From the IMG/VR virus record IMGVR_UViG_2684622669_000009, positions 1-8,380 of that record: a stretch of 8,380 nt of DNA; one strand, given 5' to 3'. Position numbers and translations under genes: made by a program. Source of the DNA: a virus. Its lineage: Duplodnaviria; Heunggongvirae; Uroviricota; Caudoviricetes. Shown one piece after another: positions 1-8,380 of the stretch. A model generated the notes under the pieces. It was not told the origin of the DNA and searched no databases. It was given only the letters and a program-made list of their open reading frames with translations. Each line of letters starts with the position of its first letter. The first letter of the stretch is position 1.

Positions 1-232
1 CCAATTTATCCCTCAGGATCCTAAAGCGGTACTTTGGCGTCCAGACTATGGGATATTTGCAACGCCAATATACATGTGATGAACTTCTGTAAAGCCCCAT
101 GTCAGTTTGTTTCCTTTTACTTGTGGTGAGTAAGCAGAGATATTCCGACATGGGCATTCTTCAGGCTATAGCCTTACAGGATCAATCACCACCTCCCCAG
201 GAGGTGGTTTAGGGATAACAACAAAAAAACCC

Positions 233-256
233 GCAGTTACGCGGGCTTAGAGGTAC
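233..256 (-). terminator. Intrinsic (rho-independent) terminator downstream of the lysis cassette
   Basis: Stem cccgc (240-244) / gcggg (251-255) with a 6-nt loop; on the minus strand it is followed by a run of 7 T (plus-strand A-run 233-239). Lies about 165 nt downstream of the Rz stop. Confidence 0.6.
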
Positions 257-420
257 TTTACTGCTTTTACGTACAGGCTGTTGCCAGACGCGAAATCATT
301 CCCACTCAATTATTTACGACAACCATAACCAATTGAGTGATAACATTTTTCCAAAACCTCATTTTTCCCATACCGTTTTATATACCGTCACCGGAAATCA
401 GTACCATGAAAAATGCCATG

Positions 421-903
421 CTATCTGGTCAGGGTGTCGTACTGTTTTTCACAGACTCTTCCGGCTTCGGCTGCCCGGTCAGCATACTCTGCCAGTTGTC
501 TGTTTCTCTCGAGAGATTTGCTGAGCAAGTCGGCAAGCAAAACTCCGGTGTCTGCGGCTGACGCCCCAGCGCCGACAATGGCGTTATACTGCCTGAGCTG
601 CTCACGGATGGCAACGAGCTGTTGCTGCAACCGGCCAGCGCGAGCGGCAGCATCAAGAGCATCATTGCGCGCCTGGTCGATCCTTTGCTGAGCTTCACGT
701 TCATTGGTAGCTTTCTCCTGTTCGTAGTGCTGACGAACTATCTCATCTTCGGCTTTGCGATCTTCCTTCGCCTGCGCATACCCGGCTTCGTACTGACGAC
801 TGCCGTATGCATTCCAGGCTACAACTCCTGATATGACCAGAACAGCAAGCATCGCCATGATAACCAACTGTTTACTGTATGCTTTTGCGAATGCCCAGAT
901 CAT
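421..903 (-). CDS. Rz: Rz-like i-spanin (inner-membrane spanin subunit)
   Basis: 160 aa; N-terminal transmembrane segment (LVIMAMLAVLVISGVVAW) followed by a long charged, Q/A/E/R-rich predicted coiled coil. Its ATG overlaps the endolysin stop as ATGA (900-903), indicating translational coupling; it contains the embedded Rz1 frame. Confidence 0.85.
   Translation of the reverse strand: MIWAFAKAYSKQLVIMAMLAVLVISGVVAWNAYGSRQYEAGYAQAKEDRKAEDEIVRQHYEQEKATNEREAQQRIDQARNDALDAAARAGRLQQQLVAIREQLRQYNAIVGAGASAADTGVLLADLLSKSLERNRQLAEYADRAAEAGRVCEKQYDTLTR
429..704 (-). CDS. Rz1: Rz1-like o-spanin (outer-membrane lipoprotein), embedded out of frame inside Rz
   Basis: 91-aa ORF lying wholly inside the Rz ORF in another frame. 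N-terminus MNVKLSKGSTRR + hydrophobic AMMLLMLPLA + lipobox LAG|C is a typical lipoprotein signal peptide; the mature part is short and proline-rich as in lambda Rz1. AGGAGA Shine-Dalgarno about 9 nt upstream of the ATG at 704. Start could instead be the internal Met at 665 or 662. Confidence 0.75.
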   Translation of the reverse strand: MNVKLSKGSTRRAMMLLMLPLALAGCSNSSLPSVSSSGSITPLSALGRQPQTPEFCLPTCSANLSRETDNWQSMLTGQPKPEESVKNSTTP

Positions 904-1529
904 ACCGCCAGCACCTTACTGGCAGTGATGTACCGCGCGCGTCTGTCGTCGATTCCGTTCCTGCCACCATTGATAATCAGAGTTACACGTACAATATCTC
1001 CGGTATACTTCATGCAGCCTTTACTGGAGAAGAACCACGCCGCGCTACGAGCCGCGTATTCGTCCTGCGCCAGCAGTTCAGGACTCTCCAGCAGGTCAAC
1101 TTTCAGGCCGTTTCCGCAGTCACGATAGTTATTCAAACCGGTAATCTGGATAAGTCCGCGTCCTCGGTAATTCCAGCCATCACCAGGGGCATTGTTCCCC
1201 ATGCGTTTGCTGTACACCAGATTTGCAATCGCGCGCTGGCGCTCTAGTGGCAATGGTGGTTCACCAGCACGGCGACCCAGTGCATTAGCCTGTCCTTGGG
1301 TGAGACGCCCAGCCCGAACGAAGTTAGCCAGTCCGGTGACGCTGTAGTTGAAATTCTCCTGCAACCGGGTGAGGCCACCAGACTCATGCCCGACCTGAGC
1401 AATAAACATTGCTTGATCTTCGGCTTTGCTGATACCAAACTCTTTCATCGCAGAAGTTATATGCGAGAACCAGCGTGCAGCAAGCACCTCGCTAATACCA
1501 GCAGCTAGCTGGAATTGTTTAATCTCCAT
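900..1529 (-). CDS. Phage endolysin, glycoside hydrolase family 19 (chitinase-like lysozyme)
   Basis: 209 aa carrying the motifs I associate with GH19 phage endolysins: AQVGHESGG, PGDGWNYRGRGLIQITGLNNY, SPELLAQ, SAAWFF, INGGRNGIDDRR. Sits between holin-like genes and Rz/Rz1. Confidence 0.88.
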   Translation of the reverse strand: MEIKQFQLAAGISEVLAARWFSHITSAMKEFGISKAEDQAMFIAQVGHESGGLTRLQENFNYSVTGLANFVRAGRLTQGQANALGRRAGEPPLPLERQRAIANLVYSKRMGNNAPGDGWNYRGRGLIQITGLNNYRDCGNGLKVDLLESPELLAQDEYAARSAAWFFSSKGCMKYTGDIVRVTLIINGGRNGIDDRRARYITASKVLAV

Positions 1530-1830
1530 GTTTAAATCTCGTTATTTTGAAAATCTGAACGACGTTACCGCGCGTTTTAATAACCGCAGCAAGCATGACA
1601 GCGTTGATAATGACCTCAGATAAATCCACAGCCATTGGCGTGCGTAACCAGATTGCATAAACAACACGAACTGGAATACTGGCCGCAGCAACAATCAGGA
1701 AATAAGCAATCCACCCACCCCATCTTCGGTGTTGGGATCCGTTACGCTGGAAAGTGACAACGCGAATTGCTATGCCAGTACAAATAACCGCATTGGTGAT
1801 CAGCAAAAAAAGCTCATGAGTTACCATCAT
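1519..1830 (-). CDS. Holin-like small membrane protein (holin or antiholin) of the lysis cassette
   Basis: 103 aa with 2-3 predicted TM helices and a charged C-terminal tail (KTRGNVVQIFKITRFKHGD). GGAG-type Shine-Dalgarno upstream of the ATG at 1830. Overlaps the endolysin start by 11 nt and the upstream membrane-protein gene by 17 nt. Function is from position and topology, not recognised homology. Confidence 0.6.
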   Translation of the reverse strand: MMVTHELFLLITNAVICTGIAIRVVTFQRNGSQHRRWGGWIAYFLIVAAASIPVRVVYAIWLRTPMAVDLSEVIINAVMLAAVIKTRGNVVQIFKITRFKHGD

Positions 1831-2218
1831 CTTTTCTCCCCGGAATTAACTCGCGTGGATTATCTGAACGGTGATAGAGCCATATACCAATACGCACAGC
1901 GACAATTGCTGATACAAATGCACCGGCAGAAAAGACGACTCCTTTTTCGAATGATTCCTGCGTGATTGTTGGAATCAGGCTGGCTATGCCGATAAGAATT
2001 AATGCTGCTGGCTTGTAGAAAAGAAGACCACATAGAAAACTTAGTATCGATAAAAGAACACGACGACGAACAGGATACTCTACCGCTGAGGTAACAAAAA
2101 TTACCGCGCCCGCTAGTGCACCTAAAGCAACTTCTGGCGGCACACCAGCGACCACAGACATTAGCGCGCTCATGCTAAGCCCCTGATTCAGCGACCCTGT
2201 AGTTAATGTGTGCGACAT
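1814..2218 (-). CDS. Holin-like membrane protein (3 predicted TM helices), first gene of the lysis cassette
   Basis: About 134 aa from the ATG at 2216-2218 (GGTGG Shine-Dalgarno 5 nt upstream); the ORF track's start at 2227 is a GTG with no Shine-Dalgarno. Three hydrophobic segments and a charged C-terminus (YHRSDNPRELIPGRKDDGNS). Assigned by position and topology only. Confidence 0.6.
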   Translation of the reverse strand: MSHTLTTGSLNQGLSMSALMSVVAGVPPEVALGALAGAVIFVTSAVEYPVRRRVLLSILSFLCGLLFYKPAALILIGIASLIPTITQESFEKGVVFSAGAFVSAIVAVRIGIWLYHRSDNPRELIPGRKDDGNS

Positions 2219-2317
2219 AGAGACCACCGTTTAATGTGCATAAAGTCACCCCCCTTAGATGATGAGTCCATCATACACAATAAACCATATTGGGTTCAAA
2301 GAATCATAAAAATGCTC

Positions 2318-2347
2318 TTAACGAAATTACCTTAAAGGTGATATGAT
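2318..2347 (+). promoter_or_regulatory. Candidate sigma70 promoter for the acyltransferase gene
   Basis: TTAACG (2318-2323), 18-nt spacer, TATGAT (2342-2347), about 30 nt upstream of the ATG at 2378, in the AT-rich divergent intergenic region. Motif-level guess only. Confidence 0.3.
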
Positions 2348-2377
2348 AAATAAAATGATTCATGGTAGATATATAAA

Positions 2378-3472
2378 ATGTTCATTACTAACACTGATGT
2401 TTTTACCTTTCTTTTCTTAGCTATATCATTAATAGCGGCTATTTTTGTCAAAAAAATAATCCCATCAACCGTAATAAATGTACATAATGACACAACCTTA
2501 GAAGGTTTAAGAGGCATTGCATGCTTATTTGTATTTATAAATCATGCTTCATATAGCATTCATCACATCGGAATACAAAATTGGCAAATGATGGGTGATT
2601 CACCATATACCGGGAGAATGGGAGCTTTCGGAGTGGAGATATTTTTCTGTTTGACAGGGTACTTGTTTGCAAAAAAGATTCGCAAAGGAGATATAGACTT
2701 GTCATTTTTTGAAAAAAGAATCAGGAGGCTTGCTCCTGCATATATATTTGTATCATTTGTAGTTTTTATATATTTCGTATTTATGAACTATAATGTTATT
2801 CGTGGTTACTACGATATATCGGCTTTGATCCAACAAATTTTCGGATTCGGTTTCTTTGGGAATAGAATATCTGTAAACGGTATGGTGGATACATCATTGA
2901 ATGCTGTTGTGTGGACGCTTCCTTATGAATGGAAGTTTTATGCAATAGTCCCCTTCGTAGCGGCTATTTATAAGCTAAGAAGGCCTATCCCTCTACTTAT
3001 CGCATTTGGAGTAGCGACTGTTTGCATTGACTATTGGTCGAAAATGTTCTTGTGGGGGTTTTTCGTAACCGGATTCATTGCTTCATTCGTTGGTATTTTA
3101 GAAAATAGATATCTTAAGTATATCTCATATTACATAATGCTATTCCTATTTGCATATGCATTTAAGGGATCATTTGATATTCATGGTTTCCAAATGTTTG
3201 TCGTAGTATCTTTATTTTTCATAACATTTATTGCGGCAAGACCTAAGATATTCTCCATAGGAGTATTTGTTTACCTTGGAACTATAAGCTATAGCATTTA
3301 TCTACTACATCAGGTAGTTACAACGGTTTTCATGAAATTAATCTCTGGGGTAATCGATCTACTTACCATAAATATGTATGAATACTTAATGGTCTGCATC
3401 ATACCAATATCACTTACAATTTACTTATCATCTATTAGTTACAATAAAATAGAGAAAAAATTCATCAGATAA
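2378..3472 (+). CDS. Acyltransferase family 3 integral membrane protein; probable O-antigen / surface-polysaccharide O-acetyltransferase (lysogenic conversion gene)
   Basis: 364 aa, hydrophobic throughout (about 10 TM helices), with AT3-type motifs LEGLRGIACLFVFINH, FGVEIFFCLTGYL and SYSIYLLHQ. Markedly AT-rich compared with its neighbours (estimated by eye at roughly 30% GC). Opposite strand to the flanking phage genes. Confidence 0.85.
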   Translation: MFITNTDVFTFLFLAISLIAAIFVKKIIPSTVINVHNDTTLEGLRGIACLFVFINHASYSIHHIGIQNWQMMGDSPYTGRMGAFGVEIFFCLTGYLFAKKIRKGDIDLSFFEKRIRRLAPAYIFVSFVVFIYFVFMNYNVIRGYYDISALIQQIFGFGFFGNRISVNGMVDTSLNAVVWTLPYEWKFYAIVPFVAAIYKLRRPIPLLIAFGVATVCIDYWSKMFLWGFFVTGFIASFVGILENRYLKYISYYIMLFLFAYAFKGSFDIHGFQMFVVVSLFFITFIAARPKIFSIGVFVYLGTISYSIYLLHQVVTTVFMKLISGVIDLLTINMYEYLMVCIIPISLTIYLSSISYNKIEKKFIR

Positions 3473-3475
3473 ATA

Positions 3476-3507
3476 ATATTGGAGGGTTACTACCTCCAAT
3501 ATGTTTT
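3476..3507. terminator. Bidirectional terminator hairpin between the convergent acyltransferase and tailspike genes
   Basis: Perfect 10-bp stem atattggagg (3476-3485) / cctccaatat (3493-3502) with a 7-nt loop, followed by GTTTT on the plus strand and an A/T-rich stretch on the minus strand. Sits 4 nt after the acyltransferase stop and 13 nt after the tailspike stop. Confidence 0.7.
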
Positions 3508-3519
3508 GACTGCACTGTT

Positions 3520-5742
3520 TCAGCCGTTCGAGATTTTACCAGATATCCTAAATCTTAGCGCTCCAGATTTGATGTAATTGTATGTGAGGAAAGTTCTTGT
3601 GCCATCAGATGCCACGGCATAGAACTGAATCTTTGTGAAGTCTGTAGCTCCTGTAGGAATAAATCCAATAACATCGACAGTTCCTGCTGGTAATGCATTC
3701 CCAAGCGCTGTCCTGACCTCTATCTCGCATCCTGCCCCTGGATAAAAACCAAGCCCTCTGGGAAGGGTGATTGTGATATTTCCTGTACCGCCTGTTGTTC
3801 CTGTAACATTTATACTTACATGCAAATCAACATGCTCACCATCCCTCCTTGCAGTATATGTGCCAGTTTGTGTTACAGCTGTAGTATCATCGAAACCGAT
3901 ACTTCCAGTTAAGGCCGCATTAACCTGTAGTTCAGATTTAAATCCGCATATATTATTTCTCCACGGAATCGTTGGTTTATCACCATCCCATGTGATGGGT
4001 TGCGATGAAAAATGAGTTGTTTTATTACCAAGAAATTTTAAATTAAACAAGTTGTTATTTATATCGCCAACAAGATAAGCAGCATAAAAAGGTAGCCCTC
4101 CAGTAACAACCTGTTCATTGTGAGAAGTTACAACAGCATCGTGTATAGTATTGCTGGTTGAGCGAATCACAAACCCATAACCACCATTATCCATCGTTGC
4201 GCCAGAATCTGGATCTAATTTTGCAACGCTATCAGCATATGGTCTATAAAGTGTATGCCCACCAGATATCAATTCAAAACCGATTAACATTTGCCTGTTA
4301 GGATATAAATCATCTGATGTTTTAGGATGTCCCCATGGATGAGGATCTACAAGAGTATTCGATCCGGTACCAGAAATGCGAATGCCTATTGGATAATCTA
4401 TCGTTATAGGGTTTACAAAATGGCTATCACCAGTGCGAATCCACAATCCAACTACCGACTTGCTTTCCCATTTCATAATTCCAAAGCAACTATGCATAAT
4501 TGCGATTTCATAACCTATTGAAGGAATACCACCAATATCTGCCCCGCCTCTTAGCATCCCCCACGTTTCCATCTGACCTACCGTAACACCAGCTATATGC
4601 GTCATCAGAACACCAATTGCATCAACATGTTGGTAATATACGGTTCCCCAGTCAGTATTCTGCGTATGTCGTATGTGAATTCGTGGAATATAGGTACGCT
4701 TATCGCTATATGTGGTCGTTGGTGACATAATGTGATAGACAGCCTTATAGCTATTTCCTGCGGCATCTACTGTTTGGAAATCACCAGTTGGATCTGCCCA
4801 TATAACACCAGTCTGCAATACGCTAAGCCCTGCCAGATGCTTAATTGATGATTTAACCCGATAGACATTTGGCAGCCAAACTGTTTTGTTATTCTCATAA
4901 GCATAGTCATACGCATCCTGAATCATCACAGCCCAGTCAGTTTCTCCTGGATGATTTGCATAGAACTGCTCAGGTGTAACAAACTGCGAACGCGCAAATA
5001 GATCGTTTAAATCTGTTTGCACTGTACCGCTGGACATCGTGCCTATCAAACAACTTCCTGTTGGCTTCGCTAGTTCTATGAGAACATCAGCAGCAGAACC
5101 AGATTCTGGTAGTAGCATGATTGGGTTACCATTATCATCCATGCCTACAATTTTGTTTTTTCTCAACTCAACTGGTGGTAACTGCGGGATCATTTCTGCC
5201 GTGCGTAACGTTCTGCTAAAGAGAAGATCCGTATGCGAAGTGTTTCCAGCGCTAAGTGAGTCAGCATAATTCTTTGTCGCTGCATCCTGAGGGCGAATAG
5301 GGTCTCTTAAGTTTCTAATGTAGTTGTTTAGTGCGTCGTAATAATTAGCCACGAACGACGGCTTTCGCAGAACAAGGCTAAACCAACTACGCACTTGCTG
5401 GATCAGCATCGTCAGCTTATCGAACGCGTCTTCATGCACCTCAGCGAAAAACTTTCCCTGATTGCGCAGATCAGTTTCCTGCGTAACCGGTAGCTCTCGT
5501 GATATAGAAATCTGATAACCGTTAGCCAACGCCTTCGACAGAATTACATTACCGCCGTTATATCCTCCAGCTCCGGTAACTGTATAATCAGTATCAAGAG
5601 TCAGCACAGCAATATTTTCGTTAAGGTCAGAGACCTGAACAACCAAGTCGGATTTTTTGAAAATACGGAAGGTATACGGAAATGATGTCGTAACACCGTT
5701 ACCGGTGTATTCGTTGTGGTCAACTTCGGTTGAGACCGTCAT
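3520..5742 (-). CDS. Tailspike / tail fiber protein with putative polysaccharide depolymerase (beta-helix) receptor-binding domain
   Basis: 740 aa. The N-terminal ~150 aa (YTGNGVTTSFPYTFRIFKKSDLVV...LTLDTDYTV) follow the pattern of the T7 gp17 N-terminal particle-attachment domain. A downstream segment TPEQFYANHPGETDWAVMIQDAYDYAYENNKTVWLPNVYRV matches the signature at the start of pectate-lyase-type beta-helix tailspikes. Gly/Thr/Ser-rich C-terminus. GGAGA Shine-Dalgarno 6 nt before the ATG at 5742. Confidence 0.88.
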   Translation of the reverse strand: MTVSTEVDHNEYTGNGVTTSFPYTFRIFKKSDLVVQVSDLNENIAVLTLDTDYTVTGAGGYNGGNVILSKALANGYQISISRELPVTQETDLRNQGKFFAEVHEDAFDKLTMLIQQVRSWFSLVLRKPSFVANYYDALNNYIRNLRDPIRPQDAATKNYADSLSAGNTSHTDLLFSRTLRTAEMIPQLPPVELRKNKIVGMDDNGNPIMLLPESGSAADVLIELAKPTGSCLIGTMSSGTVQTDLNDLFARSQFVTPEQFYANHPGETDWAVMIQDAYDYAYENNKTVWLPNVYRVKSSIKHLAGLSVLQTGVIWADPTGDFQTVDAAGNSYKAVYHIMSPTTTYSDKRTYIPRIHIRHTQNTDWGTVYYQHVDAIGVLMTHIAGVTVGQMETWGMLRGGADIGGIPSIGYEIAIMHSCFGIMKWESKSVVGLWIRTGDSHFVNPITIDYPIGIRISGTGSNTLVDPHPWGHPKTSDDLYPNRQMLIGFELISGGHTLYRPYADSVAKLDPDSGATMDNGGYGFVIRSTSNTIHDAVVTSHNEQVVTGGLPFYAAYLVGDINNNLFNLKFLGNKTTHFSSQPITWDGDKPTIPWRNNICGFKSELQVNAALTGSIGFDDTTAVTQTGTYTARRDGEHVDLHVSINVTGTTGGTGNITITLPRGLGFYPGAGCEIEVRTALGNALPAGTVDVIGFIPTGATDFTKIQFYAVASDGTRTFLTYNYIKSGALRFRISGKISNG

Positions 5743-5898
5743 GTTAAATCTCCAGATAGTCGCAGCACCCGTTGCGCCGCATATCCGGTTATTCTATTAC
5801 CTGAAAAACCATATATGGATAGGTAACCCATAAATACGAACAGATATTACCTTTCAGGTAATTTGCAAAACGTGCTGGATAGCAAACAAATTATTTGA

Positions 5899-5918
5899 TA
5901 CTGTATATTCATACAGTT
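5899..5918 (+). promoter_or_regulatory. LexA (SOS) box overlapping the putative promoter of the 85-aa gene / Bro-N operon
   Basis: TACTGTATATTCATACAGTT matches the E. coli LexA consensus TACTGTATATATATACAGTA at 17 of 20 positions, with the CTGT-N8-ACAG core intact. It lies 20 nt upstream of the ATG at 5938, with a possible -10 TATATT (5904-5909) inside the box. Confidence 0.6.
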
Positions 5919-5937
5919 ATTGCATGGAGAAGATAAG

Positions 5938-6195
5938 ATGCAGCAGTATCACTATCCACTGGAAGACGGATTTACCGAAAGGATTCACACGCCGGGAGGC
6001 GTCAGGTCACTGGTGGAGGGATCGCACTTGATGAAATTACTCCGGGATCTCGATAAGGATGGATTTAATGTCGATGGCCCACTTACCGAACTGACTGCAC
6101 TGATTAACTACGTCACCAGCTCACAGATGTCTATGCAGGAGCTGCAAACACATCTCGACTATTGTGCCGAACAATTACGAAAGCAAACCAGATAA
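5938..6195 (+). CDS. Small protein (85 aa) paralogous to the C-terminal domain of the downstream Bro-N antirepressor; candidate SOS-induced antirepressor or modulator
   Basis: ATG at 5938 preceded by GGAGAAG. Aligns over its whole length with the last ~78 residues of the Bro-N protein (shared YxxPLxxG[FY]xxxIH[ST]PxGV...SxLMxLL...DGxxVxG...ELT...QTHxxY). The ORF-track start at 5920 is a TTG; the ATG with a Shine-Dalgarno is preferred. Confidence 0.7.
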   Translation: MQQYHYPLEDGFTERIHTPGGVRSLVEGSHLMKLLRDLDKDGFNVDGPLTELTALINYVTSSQMSMQELQTHLDYCAEQLRKQTR

Positions 6196-6333
6196 GGTTT
6201 GCAATTACCAAGCGGAGTGCTTATATTTACCTTTGCGGTAAATTTACATCGCACTCCTCTTGTGCCATAGTGATCAGGCACTGGCAAAATCCAGTGCCGG
6301 GATTGGCGTCCCGGATTACTAAAAGGCGCATTC

Positions 6334-6353
6334 ACCGCGCAAGCGGTTTTTTT
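6334..6353 (+). terminator. Candidate intrinsic terminator / attenuator between the 85-aa gene and the Bro-N gene
   Basis: 5-bp stem accgc / gcggt with a GCAA tetraloop, followed by a run of 7 T (6347-6353). The short stem suggests partial termination. Confidence 0.45.
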
Positions 6354-6510
6354 ATGCGTATAGCACGGTCACATTCGTATTATGGTGGGCTGTGTGGGGG
6401 CACCGAAAGGTGCGCCGGGTCCTTTTAGCCGGTTACGCCAACCCTGCACAGTTCACCACCAACCGATTGGCGTCGGTAGTGGTGATTAACCAGACTAAAA
6501 GGTAACCACT

Positions 6511-7197
6511 ATGACTGCTAACGTAACCCCATCTGTTTTTCATTTTGAATCAGAAGCAACCATTCGAGCCATTGTTATTGATGGAAATCCTTGGTTTGTT
6601 GCCAAAGACGTTATTAAAGCTCTTCAACTGACAAACCCCACTATGTCAATAAAATCTCTTGATGATGATGAAAGGGCTAAATTTAACTTAGGCCGTCAAG
6701 GCGAAACCAATATTATCAACGAGTCAGGCCTCTACACACTGATCCTCCGCTGCCGCGATGCGGTGACACCAGGCACTATCCCCTACCGCTTTCGTAAATG
6801 GGTTACAGGTGAGGTTCTTCCTCAGATCCGCCGCACCGGAAGTTACATTAAAAACTCGCTCCCGCAGGAAGAACGCATAAAGATGGTTGCCGACCAGGTA
6901 GCCAACGCCACAGCATCAGCAGTGATGCAGGCAATGAAGATAGAGAACAAAACCTACAGCGCCCCACTGAAGCCCGGCTACCGCAGTCTGATTCATTCTC
7001 CGTCTGGTGTTCTCGGCTTGACGGAGAACTCACTGCTGATGAATCTGCTGAACCGGTTACAGGAAGACGGGCACGACGTATCGGGCGCGGCGGCGGAGCT
7101 GACCACCATGTTCTGCTACATCGTCGGTGTGAGCAAATGCCTGCGTGATATCCAGACACACGCGGAGTACATCAACGACAAAGCAGGGTTCTTCTGA
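6511..7197 (+). CDS. Bro-N domain phage antirepressor-like protein
   Basis: 228 aa. N-terminal ~110 aa fit the Bro-N pattern (FHFESEATIRAIVIDGNPWFVAKDVIKALQL...ESGLYTLILRCRD). The C-terminal ~78 aa are paralogous to the upstream 85-aa protein. Confidence 0.85.
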   Translation: MTANVTPSVFHFESEATIRAIVIDGNPWFVAKDVIKALQLTNPTMSIKSLDDDERAKFNLGRQGETNIINESGLYTLILRCRDAVTPGTIPYRFRKWVTGEVLPQIRRTGSYIKNSLPQEERIKMVADQVANATASAVMQAMKIENKTYSAPLKPGYRSLIHSPSGVLGLTENSLLMNLLNRLQEDGHDVSGAAAELTTMFCYIVGVSKCLRDIQTHAEYINDKAGFF

Positions 7198-7204
7198 CGG
7201 CGGC

Positions 7205-7223
7205 GGCACAGGGATGTGCCTTT
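7205..7223 (+). terminator. Weak candidate terminator hairpin after the Bro-N gene
   Basis: Stem ggcaca (7205-7210) / tgtgcc (7215-7220) with a GGGA loop, followed by only TTT then AAA. A weak terminator at best. Confidence 0.3.
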
Positions 7224-7313
7224 AAATAATTCTGTACAGATTGCAGGTGAATAGCTTACTATTACCTCACGGGTGATCCATAGCGATTAGGCACCGATAC
7301 AGGAGGAGCCCAC

Positions 7314-7346
7314 ATGAGAAAATTTGACGAGTACGAAGGCGTTTAA
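7314..7346 (+). CDS. Mini-ORF (10 codons, MRKFDEYEGV) with a strong Shine-Dalgarno; candidate leader peptide
   Basis: AGGAGG (7301-7306) lies 7 nt upstream of the ATG at 7314; stop TAA at 7344-7346. An in-frame stop just upstream rules out a longer ORF. A hairpin follows 18 nt downstream. Tiny ORFs are often chance, so confidence is low. Confidence 0.25.
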   Translation: MRKFDEYEGV

Positions 7347-7364
7347 CATTCGGATAGTTTAATG

Positions 7365-7387
7365 ACGGGGCCATTAGGCCCCGTTTT
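7365..7387 (+). terminator. GC-rich hairpin (terminator or attenuator) immediately upstream of the 179-aa gene
   Basis: Perfect 8-bp stem acggggcc (7365-7372) / ggccccgt (7377-7384) with a 4-nt loop, followed by a short T-run (TTT then CAT). The downstream gene's Shine-Dalgarno starts only 8 nt after the hairpin, so the hairpin must lie in that gene's 5' leader unless the gene is read through from upstream. Confidence 0.45.
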
Positions 7388-7405
7388 CATGTCTGGAGAC
7401 AGTTT

Positions 7406-7945
7406 GTGTTAAGTGAAGAAATGCAATTTGCCATGGCTGTAGCTCAAATCGTAAGTGCAGTCGCGGTTTCGCTTGGCTTGTTCATAGCTATCGCTACTAT
7501 TATTTATAATGTAAATACAGCGAGAAAAGTACACACTTCAGTATTCCTTGGTGAAAGCAGGTTTGATGTAGATTATAAGAAAGGCCTATCTACTATGCGC
7601 CGCATTCACGAATCGAACAAATCATTCCGCTCTTATATGTATCCAAGCAATGGGCAGGCTGATCTTACGGATGAAGAAAAGACAGAGAAGAGAGAAATAA
7701 TTTACTGTCTAGGTTTCTACGAACGCATGGCTGTGAGCGTGAAGCGGAAAACTTATGATGAGACCATGATTAAGGAAGTATTTTACAGCTCCGTTGTAAA
7801 TAACTATCAGATTGCGCTACCTCTTATACAAGCCATTAGAGAAAAAGAAAACATAAACACATATTTTAAAGAATATGAATGGTTGGCCACACGATGGAAG
7901 GATTGCCCATTGAAGGATAAATCCCCGTGGTACAAGTTTTGGTAA
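7406..7945 (+). CDS. Membrane-anchored protein of unknown function (179 aa); candidate superinfection-exclusion / abortive-infection effector
   Basis: GTG start at 7406 with GGAGA 6 nt upstream (alternative ATG at 7421). One N-terminal TM helix (FAMAVAQIVSAVAVSLGLFIAIATIIYNV) then a ~140-aa charged soluble domain rich in K/E/Y. Lower GC than its neighbours (estimated by eye at roughly 40%). Followed directly by a strong terminator. I recognise no family for it. Confidence 0.7.
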   Translation: MLSEEMQFAMAVAQIVSAVAVSLGLFIAIATIIYNVNTARKVHTSVFLGESRFDVDYKKGLSTMRRIHESNKSFRSYMYPSNGQADLTDEEKTEKREIIYCLGFYERMAVSVKRKTYDETMIKEVFYSSVVNNYQIALPLIQAIREKENINTYFKEYEWLATRWKDCPLKDKSPWYKFW

Positions 7946-7966
7946 GCCCGCGCTGCGGGCTTTTTT
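7946..7966 (+). terminator. Intrinsic terminator after the 179-aa gene
   Basis: Stem gcccgc (7946-7951) / gcgggc (7955-7960) with a 3-nt loop, followed by a run of 6 T (7961-7966). Begins one nucleotide after the TAA stop. Confidence 0.75.
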
Positions 7967-8038
7967 GTGGACGAAACAAAAGTCAGTGCTACACTCATTG
8001 ACGCCACATTGAGGTGGCTTATAGATGGAAATTTCACA

Positions 8039-8200
8039 ATGAAAAAAGCATTTGCTGCACTGTTCGTTTTGTTGTCTCTGGTAGCTTCAACTCAGGCTTT
8101 TGCCGGTCGTTGTCAGCACGACAGCGATACTGCTGCTGACGGCTCCCGCTGCGGTGGGCGTTCTGCGGACTCCCGCCCGGGCGGCGGTGGCATTCGTTAA
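8039..8200 (+). CDS. Possible small secreted peptide (53 aa) with an N-terminal signal peptide
   Basis: ATG at 8039. MKKAFAALFVLLSLVASTQAFA looks like a Sec signal peptide with an AFA cleavage motif; the predicted mature part (~31 aa, Gly/Ser/Arg-rich, two Cys) is low-complexity. No clear Shine-Dalgarno, GC-rich region with ORFs in several frames, and a 5-codon upstream ORF (8025-8042) overlaps the start as ATGA. May be spurious. Confidence 0.3.
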   Translation: MKKAFAALFVLLSLVASTQAFAGRCQHDSDTAADGSRCGGRSADSRPGGGGIR

Positions 8201-8222
8201 AAACAAGGCCGCGAAAGCGGCC
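8197..8222 (-). terminator. Intrinsic terminator on the minus strand, downstream of the partial minus-strand gene
   Basis: Perfect 6-bp stem ggccgc (8207-8212) / gcggcc (8217-8222) with a 4-nt loop; on the minus strand it is followed by TTGTTTTTAA (plus 8197-8206). Sits 10 nt after the candidate minus-strand stop at 8232-8234. Confidence 0.6.
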
Positions 8223-8231
8223 TGTGACATG

Positions 8232-8380
8232 TCACGTCCCTTTTCTGAATGATATCCATTCGAAAAATGATGACATTCCACCGCAGACAACAGCAAAGAT
8301 GATCCCACCAAAGAAGAGAATGCCAGCCTGCCACCACTCCCACCGCCATACATCCACAGCGCCAACCATACCAACAATCG
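8232..8380 (-). CDS. 3' end of a minus-strand gene for a hydrophobic, Trp-rich small or membrane protein; partial, continues beyond the window
   Basis: Hand translation of the minus strand in the frame that stops at 8232-8234 gives ...IVGMVGAVDVWRWEWWQAGILFFGGIIFAVVCGGMSSFFEWISFRKGT*, which ends cleanly just before the minus-strand terminator. The overlapping ORF-track frame (8087..8377) would run through that hairpin and is low-complexity. A complete 46-aa protein from the ATG at 8367-8369 is also possible. Confidence 0.3.
   Translation of the reverse strand, partial: IVGMVGAVDVWRWEWWQAGILFFGGIIFAVVCGGMSSFFEWISFRKGT

Follow-up and report, generated by a model that had tools for sequence, protein, structure and literature searches.

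A phage antirepressor leader encoding IsrK and a C4-type antisense RNA in a phiV10/epsilon15-like virus

Introduction

The immI operon of phages P1 and P7, c4-icd-ant, was reportedly described by Citron and Schuster in 1990. In P1, repression by C4 through the sites a2 and b2 has been shown, as has the processing of C4 by RNase P. The annotated order in P1 (NC_005856) is the C1 operator Op51 over the -35 element of the promoter P51a, then a1, b1, the 77-nucleotide (nt) c4, a2, b2 over the ribosome-binding site (RBS) of icd, icd and ant. Here we analyse a spacer of similar layout in a stretch of 8,380 nt of viral DNA (IMG/VR record IMGVR_UViG_2684622669_000009, positions 1 to 8,380), referred to as the window. 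The spacer extends from the end of a gene for an 85-amino-acid (85-aa) protein at position 6195 to the start of ant, a Bro-N antirepressor gene, at 6511. It contains two known small RNAs, IsrK and a C4-type antisense RNA, and the locus is a known kind of phage immunity switch with no new mechanism.

In phage P4, CI RNA controls termination through seqA and seqC. As we propose for the window, a processed small RNA there pairs with repeated sites up- and downstream; what is controlled in P4, however, is transcription termination of replication genes and not the translation of an antirepressor.

The isrK-orf45(STnc1160)-anrP locus of Gifsy-1 in Salmonella is collinear with the window almost nucleotide for nucleotide. 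In Gifsy-1, anrP is transcribed from the isrK promoter through read-through of a terminator, the long RNA is translationally silent, and IsrK provided in trans lifts anrP translation more than 100-fold (Hershko-Shalev et al., 2016, PMC4825925). The orf45 region also gives rise to STnc1160, a processed and stable RNA, and IsrK was described as a structural homologue of the P4 SeqA RNA (PMC4825925).

The c4 and c4-a1b1 motifs were defined by Weinberg et al. (2010, PMC2864571). The c4-a1b1 model of Rfam (RF03163) belongs to the same clan as C4 and spans the -10 region and the first two IsrK hairpins, including a1; it ends before b1 and the terminator, both of which the isrK model includes. In the APSE phages of Hamiltonella, records annotate isrK and C4 with a'/b' regions beside a Bro-N gene (Rouil et al., 2020, PMC7313666). 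These phages are podovirus-like and temperate, like the virus of the window, with only ~70% sequence identity and differing addresses. Their a'/b' regions were matched solely to the region upstream of Bro-N and to a distant polymerase gene, and IsrK was not treated as a carrier of a1 and b1 (PMC7313666). Our literature searches found no paper on IsrK or C4 RNAs in phages of the genus Uetakevirus, to which phiV10 and epsilon15 belong.

Results and Discussion

The spacer contains IsrK and a C4-type RNA

The whole window was scanned with the Rfam covariance models at their gathering thresholds (GA), and a more permissive scan was added. Exactly two matches exceeded the thresholds, both full-length and both within the spacer (plus strand): isrK (RF01394) at 6278-6353 with 77.9 bits (GA 50) over model positions 1-77, and C4 antisense RNA (RF01695) at 6378-6463 with 77.7 bits (GA 45) over model positions 1-87. 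The respective E-values are 7e-16 and 2e-14. A first-pass annotation, made from the sequence without database searches, had listed a small regulatory RNA among the possible roles of the spacer and an Rfam search among the checks; the search returns two such RNAs. In the permissive scan the c4-a1b1 model ("a1, b1 targets of C4 antisense RNA") also matched over its full length at 6265-6317 (45.0 bits, E = 2.5e-10).

IsrK, the equivalent of the a1b1 leader of C4 systems, consists of hairpin 1 (6278-6297), hairpin 2 (6298-6313) displaying a1, a single-stranded stretch with b1 and an intrinsic terminator (6334-6347, U-run to 6353) that is also found by a terminator scan. As in Gifsy-1, isrK lies upstream of a short open reading frame (ORF) overlapping C4 and of an antirepressor gene. 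A primary transcript from its own promoter and binding to Hfq as a stable small RNA would be expected of a member of this family, and a promoter-like site is suitably spaced upstream. The C4-type RNA (6378-6463) is identified by Rfam, by covariation and by alignment to P1 c4. Its 17-bp closing stem (6383-6399 / 6442-6458) encloses hairpin 1 with a GAAA loop (6400-6413) and hairpin 2 (6414-6433). Alignment to the annotated ends of P1 C4 predicts a mature molecule of 77 nt from G6384 to C6460. The start of ant lies 48 nt past the Rfam match.

The same models recognise the two best-described relatives. P1 C4 scores 68.8 bits on RF01695, and the P1 leader scores 51.0 bits on c4-a1b1 and 35.1 bits (E = 9.5e-6) on isrK, the latter over the full length including the terminator. 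IsrK is thus a homologue of the P1 a1b1 leader. P1 has an operator overlapping the -35, for which the window has a probable counterpart, and the two share the order of a1, b1, C4, a2, b2 over an RBS, and an antirepressor. They differ in that b2 of P1 masks the RBS of icd, with ant following by translational coupling, whereas b2 of the window masks the RBS of ant directly; no icd gene is found between C4 and ant in the window, where the sole intervening ORF overlaps C4 and is not conserved. P1 Ant and the Bro-N Ant of the window belong to different families, and the RNA sequences are just ~60-70% identical. The Gifsy-1 locus likewise matches isrK, c4-a1b1 (48.1 bits) and C4 (69 bits; L127 34131-34214, minus strand). 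The literatures on Gifsy-1 "IsrK" and on P1 "c4" are hereby joined, as both describe one module.

Gifsy-1 and the window have in common the order of promoter, IsrK with its terminator, a C4-family RNA under a short ORF, and a Bro-type antirepressor. Their a addresses are identical (UUGGCGU/ACGCCAA), whereas the b addresses differ (CUAAAAGG in the window, AUCACCG... in Gifsy-1). The window cassette sits in a podovirus between tail-fibre and late genes, that of Gifsy-1 beside antQ in a lambdoid nin region; isrJ follows downstream in Gifsy-1 and not in the window, which has instead a repressor-operator-like palindrome on the promoter. On the Gifsy-1 side, the orf45/STnc1160 region is a bona fide C4-family RNA, and an a2 site (transcript nt 192-198) and a b2 site over the anrP Shine-Dalgarno (SD) sequence are present, neither of which is used in the 2016 model.

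The hairpins and complementarities that had drawn attention to the spacer are all present, with one repeat coordinate off by 1 nt. The 8-bp hairpin GGCACTGG/CCAGTGCC (6277-6298) is IsrK hairpin 1, the first TTGGCG-loop hairpin is IsrK hairpin 2, and the terminator-like hairpin ACCGC-GCAA-GCGGT with its T7 run (6334-6353) is the IsrK terminator. The GNRA hairpin GCACC-GAAA-GGTGC (6400-6413) is C4 hairpin 1, and the second TTGGCG-loop hairpin is the small stem-loop directly 3' of C4. The direct repeat GATTGGCGTC occurs in two exact 10-bp copies 164 bp apart. The first had been placed correctly at 6301-6310; the second, put at 6464-6473, is at 6465-6474. The RNA of 6278-6530 folds with -103.6 kcal/mol as compared with -82.6 +/- 5.3 kcal/mol for 200 dinucleotide shuffles (z = -3.95), none of which equals it, and the upstream part (6196-6277) gives z = -3.46. 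The spacer is thus structured beyond chance, as had been noticed.

The address sites of the two RNAs co-vary

We name the a and b sites after the P1 nomenclature. In IsrK, a1 (UUGGCGU, 6303-6309) occupies the loop and 3' side of hairpin 2, and b1 (CUAAAAGG, 6319-6326) the single-stranded linker. In C4, the loop of hairpin 2 is b' (CCUUUUAG, 6421-6428), which joins an anti-SD element to a variable address, and the single-stranded junction is a' (ACGCCAA, 6435-6441), which is unpaired in the minimum-energy fold. Downstream, a2 (UUGGCGU, 6467-6473) is found in the loop of the small hairpin CCGA/UCGG (6463-6476) directly 3' of C4, and b2 (CUAAAAGG, 6495-6502) contains AAAGG, the SD of ant (ATG 6511). 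All six sites are on the plus strand. The a' site forms 7/7 Watson-Crick pairs with a1 and 7/7 pairs with a2; b' forms 8/8 Watson-Crick pairs with b1 and 8/8 pairs with b2. In DNA letters, CTAAAAGG occurs at 6319 and 6495, matching the C4 loop CCUUUUAG, and the window holds no further copy.

To sample homologues, a pattern anchored solely on C4 hairpin 1 was used, which yielded 120 IMG/VR loci; nhmmer then gave ~75 homologous leaders. Counting only those that differ over the core leaves 51, which form the comparison set for the two RNAs. In this set, 93.3% of the cells of the proposed pairs are standard pairs, as compared with 84.2% in column shuffles and 38-46% with slid partners. Compensatory changes are seen in 36 of the 59 proposed pairs, a number reached by 0/500 shuffles. 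The covariance analysis that the first-pass annotation had called for therefore supports the stems. IsrK helices 1-3 are 94.1%, 97.3% and 93.3% paired, with 7/7, 3/5 and 2/5 compensatory pairs. The C4 closing stem is 98.8% paired (9/17 compensatory) and C4 hairpin 1 99.6% (5/5), while hairpin 2 is almost invariant at 94.9%.

The address sites change together. For a1-a', 98.6% of the cells are paired and 5/7 pairs show double-sided changes; for a'-a2 the figures are 97.8% and 4/7 compensatory. There are 13 types of junction (a') and 22 types of loop (b') among the homologues, each fitting its own a1 and a2 or its own b1 and b2. The co-variation is hence three-way, a1/a'/a2 and b1/b'/b2, across the 51 loci, in which 25 or more combinations of addresses occur. 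For the a sites, examples are ATTGGCGTC/ACGCCAA, ATTGGAACC/GTTCCAA, ATTTGCACC/GTGCAAA, ATTGGTCTC/AGACCAA, TTTAGCAGC/CTGCTAA and CTTCGCATC/ATGCGAA, and for the b sites CTAAAAGG/CCTTTTAG, CTAGTAGG/CCTACTAG, TGCATACGG/CCGTATGC and GTCAACGG/CCGTTGAC. Heteroimmunity by altered a and b addresses, known for the immI operon of P1/P7, follows the same principle. The identities of the two RNAs, the complementarity of their sites and the co-evolution of these sites are direct observations in the window and its homologues.

Duplex energies calculated without an alignment gave the same picture. The mean energy of a' plus b' with the leader is -23.3 kcal/mol for cognate and -12.8 kcal/mol for non-cognate partners, and that of C4 with IsrK is -24.0 versus -13.2 kcal/mol. 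No non-cognate partner equals the cognate one in 39/51 loci for the leader and in 46/51 for IsrK. In 49/51 loci the best b'-b2 duplex stops 6-9 nt short of the start codon and thus covers the SD.

Tandem arrays of two to four isrK-C4-ant modules, ~850 bp apart and with distinct a'/b' address pairs, occur in some viral contigs. These are the loci L114 (IMGVR_UViG_2806310672_000003, 2288-5099), L098, L103, L045, L068, L119 and L116. The four modules of the L114 contig are mutually orthogonal. In its 4x4 matrix of C4 against a2 plus b2, the cognate diagonal is at about -23 to -26 kcal/mol and the non-cognate values at -7 to -16 kcal/mol; in the matrix of C4 against IsrK, non-cognate values reach up to -19 kcal/mol.

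Proposed control of ant

On this evidence, the spacer is most likely the regulatory leader of an immI-type antirepressor operon in which C4 masks the SD of ant and IsrK, acting as a decoy, relieves the block. Transcription would begin near G6278 from a sigma-70 promoter at 6243-6271, limited by the prophage repressor at 6225-6243. Most transcripts would stop at the terminator (6334-6353) and yield a 76-nt IsrK that exposes a1 and b1, and a fraction reading through would give the C4-type RNA (6378-6463) and the ant mRNA. Attenuation at this terminator had been another of the initial suggestions; the terminator has to be read through to reach the Bro-N gene, and in the homologous Gifsy-1 such read-through is experimental (PMC4825925). 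By homology with P1, C4 would then be excised as a stable molecule of ~77 nt.

Since b2 is the SD, pairing of a' and b' with a2 and b2 in the ant leader would block translation of Ant and keep the prophage quiescent. That C4 masks this SD is suggested by the co-variation and by the position of b2. Having both addresses of the ant leader, IsrK would compete for a' and b', either of free C4 or of the C4 segment in the long RNA, and so relieve the block. Ant would then be made, inactivate the prophage repressor and promote induction. Activation by IsrK in trans and a1-a' pairing are, like read-through, experimental in Gifsy-1, and C4 repression through a2/b2 with RNase P processing is the P1 paradigm; by analogy, each of them would operate in the same way in this prophage. 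The experimentally verified Gifsy-1 pairs G28-C162 and G31-C159 fall exactly in a1/a', a1 being Gifsy-1 nt 26-32.

Several observations weigh against this view. The c4-a1b1 match falls short of its threshold, marginally, by 1.7 bits (45.0 vs GA 46.7). In the MAFFT alignment the b sites are only 54-73% paired column by column; loop-length indels align poorly and account for this, and the alignment-free duplex searches separate cognate from non-cognate partners clearly despite the diluted columns. RNAcofold returned no meaningful intermolecular pairs for C4 with the ant leader or for IsrK with C4, in a nested-only model that cannot represent loop-loop and junction contacts. As such cofolding is uninformative either way, we used local duplex energies. 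In Gifsy-1, co-expression of STnc1160, the C4 part, left the toxicity of IsrK unreduced, and the authors attribute repression to an intramolecular a1b1-a'b' helix together with orf45 coupling, and not to free C4 acting on the ant RBS (PMC4825925).

This published model, a cis-acting RNA switch coupled to an upstream ORF, is the alternative that fares best. In it, a1 and b1 pair with a' and b' of their own transcript ("structure A"), IsrK displaces the helix, the leader ORF is translated and its ribosomes open the ant start, so that free C4 is unneeded. The model has mutational, native-gel and toeprint-type data from Gifsy-1 behind it (PMC4825925), and the window is collinear with Gifsy-1 and keeps the AUG at the same place. 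That AUG opens a 35-codon leader ORF over C4 (6382-6489, plus strand), the counterpart of Gifsy-1 orf45, and is part of the conserved UUAUGGUGG 5' end of C4. However, the Gifsy-1 ORF has 45 codons and overlaps the antirepressor start (AUGA), whereas the ORF of the window ends 21 nt before the ant ATG without overlap. Across the homologues it can be as short as 14 or longer than 48 codons, its frame shifts, and it either stops 13-84 nt before ant or is in frame with ant. Its only family match is one weak PHROG hit, and it is probably not a conserved protein.

The cis switch also gives no reason for a2 and b2, yet both co-vary with a'/b' and b2 lies on the SD in 49/51 loci. As the ORF is unconserved while a2 and b2 are conserved and co-varying, translation of the leader ORF does not appear to be the conserved core of the mechanism. 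Furthermore, Gifsy-1 double mutants in a1 and a' regain repression only in part (224 and 327 versus 4 Miller units; PMC4825925), as would be expected if a' must also pair with an unmutated a2. We therefore consider the cis switch a possible but rather doubtful account of the window, noting that it and repression by C4 in trans are not exclusive.

In a large class of homologues (L007, L010, L033, L057, L086 and similar loci) the conserved AUG inside C4 opens 47 codons that run in frame into the ant start. ORF callers hence report an "Ant" of ~283 aa in L007-type loci, the N-terminus of which is really C4 RNA.

Control could also act mainly on read-through and not on translation, as in P4 immunity, with the C4-like RNA binding nascent a1 and b1 and thereby setting termination at the IsrK terminator. 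The placement of a1 and b1, 8-30 nt upstream of the terminator stem, would suit this, and the Gifsy-1 authors raise the possibility when noting the likeness of IsrK to P4 seqA (PMC4825925). On the other hand, constitutive expression of STnc1160 left the effects of IsrK in Gifsy-1 undiminished (PMC4825925), the position of b2 on the SD in nearly all homologues points to translational control, and the terminator scan finds no terminator after a2/b2 in the window. We regard this explanation as unlikely.

The first-pass annotation had further suggested that the GATTGGCGTC repeats are operators for a phage repressor, by comparison with Arc/Mnt control of ant in P22. Two exact copies of a 10-bp repeat and the frequent control of phage ant genes by repressors would fit such DNA sites. 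However, the leader transcript includes both copies; each is complementary to a', which is on the same strand, the copies and a' vary together over at least 13 types, and the homologous sites of P1 are annotated as RNA targets. The repeats are instead the a1 and a2 targets of the C4 junction, and we consider it very improbable that they or the hairpins serve as DNA operators; the operator is explained by a different motif, described below. ORFs for small Arc/Mnt-like ribbon-helix-helix repressors are found neither in nor beside the spacer. P22 immI (Mnt, Arc, sar RNA) resembles the window as a secondary immunity region that silences an antirepressor with an antisense RNA involved. The window differs from it: arc and mnt are absent, there is no overlapping convergent antisense promoter, and the two regions are homologous neither in sequence nor in structure. 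The comparison holds as a loose functional analogy only, the true homologues being P1/P7 immI and Gifsy-1 isrK.

We rejected, as equally improbable, a protein-coding spacer (an 88-aa ORF at 6162-6428, the 35-aa ORF at 6382-6489 or annotated "hypothetical proteins"): the ORFs exist, phiV10, Stx-phage and other records annotate small coding sequences or protein similarities there, and the 35-aa ORF has its weak PHROG hit, but no spacer ORF matches Pfam or NCBIfam, homologue indels are not multiples of three and shift the frames and lengths, and conservation tracks base-pairing and not codons.

Predicted promoter and probable operator of isrK

A promoter scan places the predicted isrK promoter (P_isrK) at 6243-6271 (plus strand), with a -35 TTTACA (6243-6248), a 17-nt spacer and an extended -10 TGcCATAGT (6263-6271). 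The predicted start, G6278, is position 1 of the Rfam isrK model and fits the spacing from this promoter-like site, and the 5' part of the c4-a1b1 model aligns on the -10 region. A -35/-10 pair is found at this position in every homologue class. In P1 a further promoter, P51b, is constitutive; it has no clear counterpart in the window, where a search for one gave only a weak TTGCAA-17-TATATT candidate at 6199-6227.

The promoter overlaps a nested hairpin with exactly complementary outer (GGAGTGC 6214-6220 / GCACTCC 6251-6257) and inner arms (ATTTACC 6225-6231 / GGTAAAT 6237-6243). ATTTACC-TTTGC-GGTAAAT (6225-6243) is the inner palindrome; its right half adjoins the -35 of the isrK promoter and overlaps it. 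In the GenBank record of epsilon15, ATTACC-N5-GGTAAT sites are labelled "protein_bind: repressor (lysogeny)". phiV10 has 14 copies of the core TTACC-N5-GGTAA where 0.58 would be expected, 12 of them in the intergenic 6.5% of the genome; two separate the repressor gene from the divergently oriented gene beside it, and another two are found at the opposite side of the repressor gene. In the window there are 5 against 0.28 expected (2080-2094, 2327-2341, 5847-5861, 6227-6241 and 7262-7276). In the homologues the half-sites are invariant and the 5-nt spacer varies (TTTGC, TTTAC, GCAAA, TCACA and others), which fits a protein site rather than an RNA stem. We therefore regard 6225-6243 as a probable operator of the prophage repressor. 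The initial proposal of operators in the spacer, mistaken for the GATTGGCGTC repeats, was partly right by accident, as an operator does seem to be present in this palindrome, an instance of the motif annotated for the repressor in epsilon15.

In phiV10-like phages almost all intergenic or promoter regions bear the motif. Its distribution points to a repressor resembling P1 C1, with putative operators scattered over the genome, including before the late, lysis, int and oac units.

The outer inverted repeat (6214-6257, plus strand) was rejected as a conserved RNA element. Its arms occur solely where the 85-aa gene is the upstream neighbour; with a different upstream gene the left arm is replaced and the right arm stays as promoter spacer. 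It may be the 3' hairpin of the 85-aa gene transcript, and no U-tract follows it. In phiV10 (L001, ~4350-4420) the nested hairpin is a perfect 18-bp palindrome, GGAGTGCTTATATTTACC-GCAAA-GGTAAATATAAGCACTCC, with the central 5 nt inverted relative to the window and the -35 TTTACA lost. The phiV10 isrK promoter may depend on its extended -10 alone.

Ant and the 85-aa gene

The regulated output, ant (6511-7197, plus strand), encodes 228 aa and matches the Bro-N domain of Pfam (E = 5e-20) as well as "anti-repressor Ant" families of PHROG. The DNA of phage vB_EcoP_ZX5 matches 81% of window positions 5850-6900 at 97.9% identity. In the vB_EcoP_ZX5 paper, overexpression of the annotated Bro-N antirepressor lowered lysogens ~1000-fold; the study concerned the Ant protein and not the RNAs.

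The product of the 85-aa gene (5938-6195, plus strand) aligns with Ant residues 147-224 (BLASTP, 37% identity over 78 aa, E = 3e-18), and both proteins match phrog_450. The gene thus encodes, as a separate protein, a paralogue of the C-terminal domain of Ant. A LexA box, CTGTATATTCATACAG (5901-5916), with a perfect CTGT-N8-ACAG, lies 22 nt upstream of its ATG. The box is found at -37/-40 in 20/23 homologues with variable centres, and epsilon15 has it too. The 85-aa product is probably an SOS-induced small antirepressor comparable to GfoA of Gifsy or Tum of 186. With the LexA box for one gene and P_isrK for the other, the 85-aa gene and ant have separate control signals, and the earlier idea that the spacer tunes their ratio finds no support.

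Tentatively, we suggest that epsilon15/phiV10-like prophages possess a circuit with three inputs, so far undescribed in its entirety: a repressor acting at P_isrK, a two-site RNA address code in which IsrK is a decoy of C4, and a LexA-controlled copy of the Ant C-terminus upstream. If this is true, the addresses, with at least 25 combinations and up to four orthogonal tandem modules, would be an RNA-level heteroimmunity barcode that insulates the antirepressors of co-resident prophages. Less expected were how widely the addresses have diversified, the occurrence of orthogonal modules in tandem and the neighbouring Ant C-terminal paralogue under LexA control. The locus probably shows how a common E. 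coli prophage family, phiV10/epsilon15-like and including O157-typing and serotype-converting phages, gates induction, and it pinpoints nucleotides that can be tested when prophage induction and cross-immunity are to be engineered or predicted.

Gene context and annotation

The window comes from a temperate podovirus or prophage of the phiV10/epsilon15 type (genus Uetakevirus). It has lysis genes (424-2227, minus strand), an O-antigen acyltransferase gene (2378-3472, plus strand) and a tail-fibre gene (3520-5742, minus strand) ahead of the 85-aa gene. Phages of the phiV10 group and many E. coli chromosomes are 95-98% identical to window positions 5850-6900, Enterobacter phage Tyrion is 78% identical, and 998 of 5,426 complete E. 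coli genomes match parts of this 1,051-bp region.

The public records that we inspected label the spacer only as a terminator or as hypothetical proteins, and none of the E. coli RefSeq matches has a non-coding RNA annotated over the leader. The labels found are "hypothetical/putative protein", "Ash family protein", "similar to SF0880" and "terminator", for example in phiV10 (NC_007804, 20336-20415), Stx phage P27 (KU238067, 17807-18143), Hafnia phage yong2 and several others. IsrK, C4 and their four target sites correct these annotations.

Downstream of ant lies a DUF4760 / phrog_2284 gene (7406-7945, plus strand) with its own operator-like site (7262). Neither NCBIfam nor PADLOC gave a match for the DUF4760 protein, for Ant or for the 85-aa protein. 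At this position phiV10 has merely a 30-aa ORF and a terminator, and the DUF4760 gene may be a moron.

In epsilon15 (L126, 5560-5933) the 85-aa homologue gp19, the LexA box and the repressor site are kept and the whole isrK-C4-ant cassette is absent. This suggests that the cassette entered the phiV10 lineage as a mobile insertion. Stx phages have the same isrK-C4-ant cassette in their nin region.

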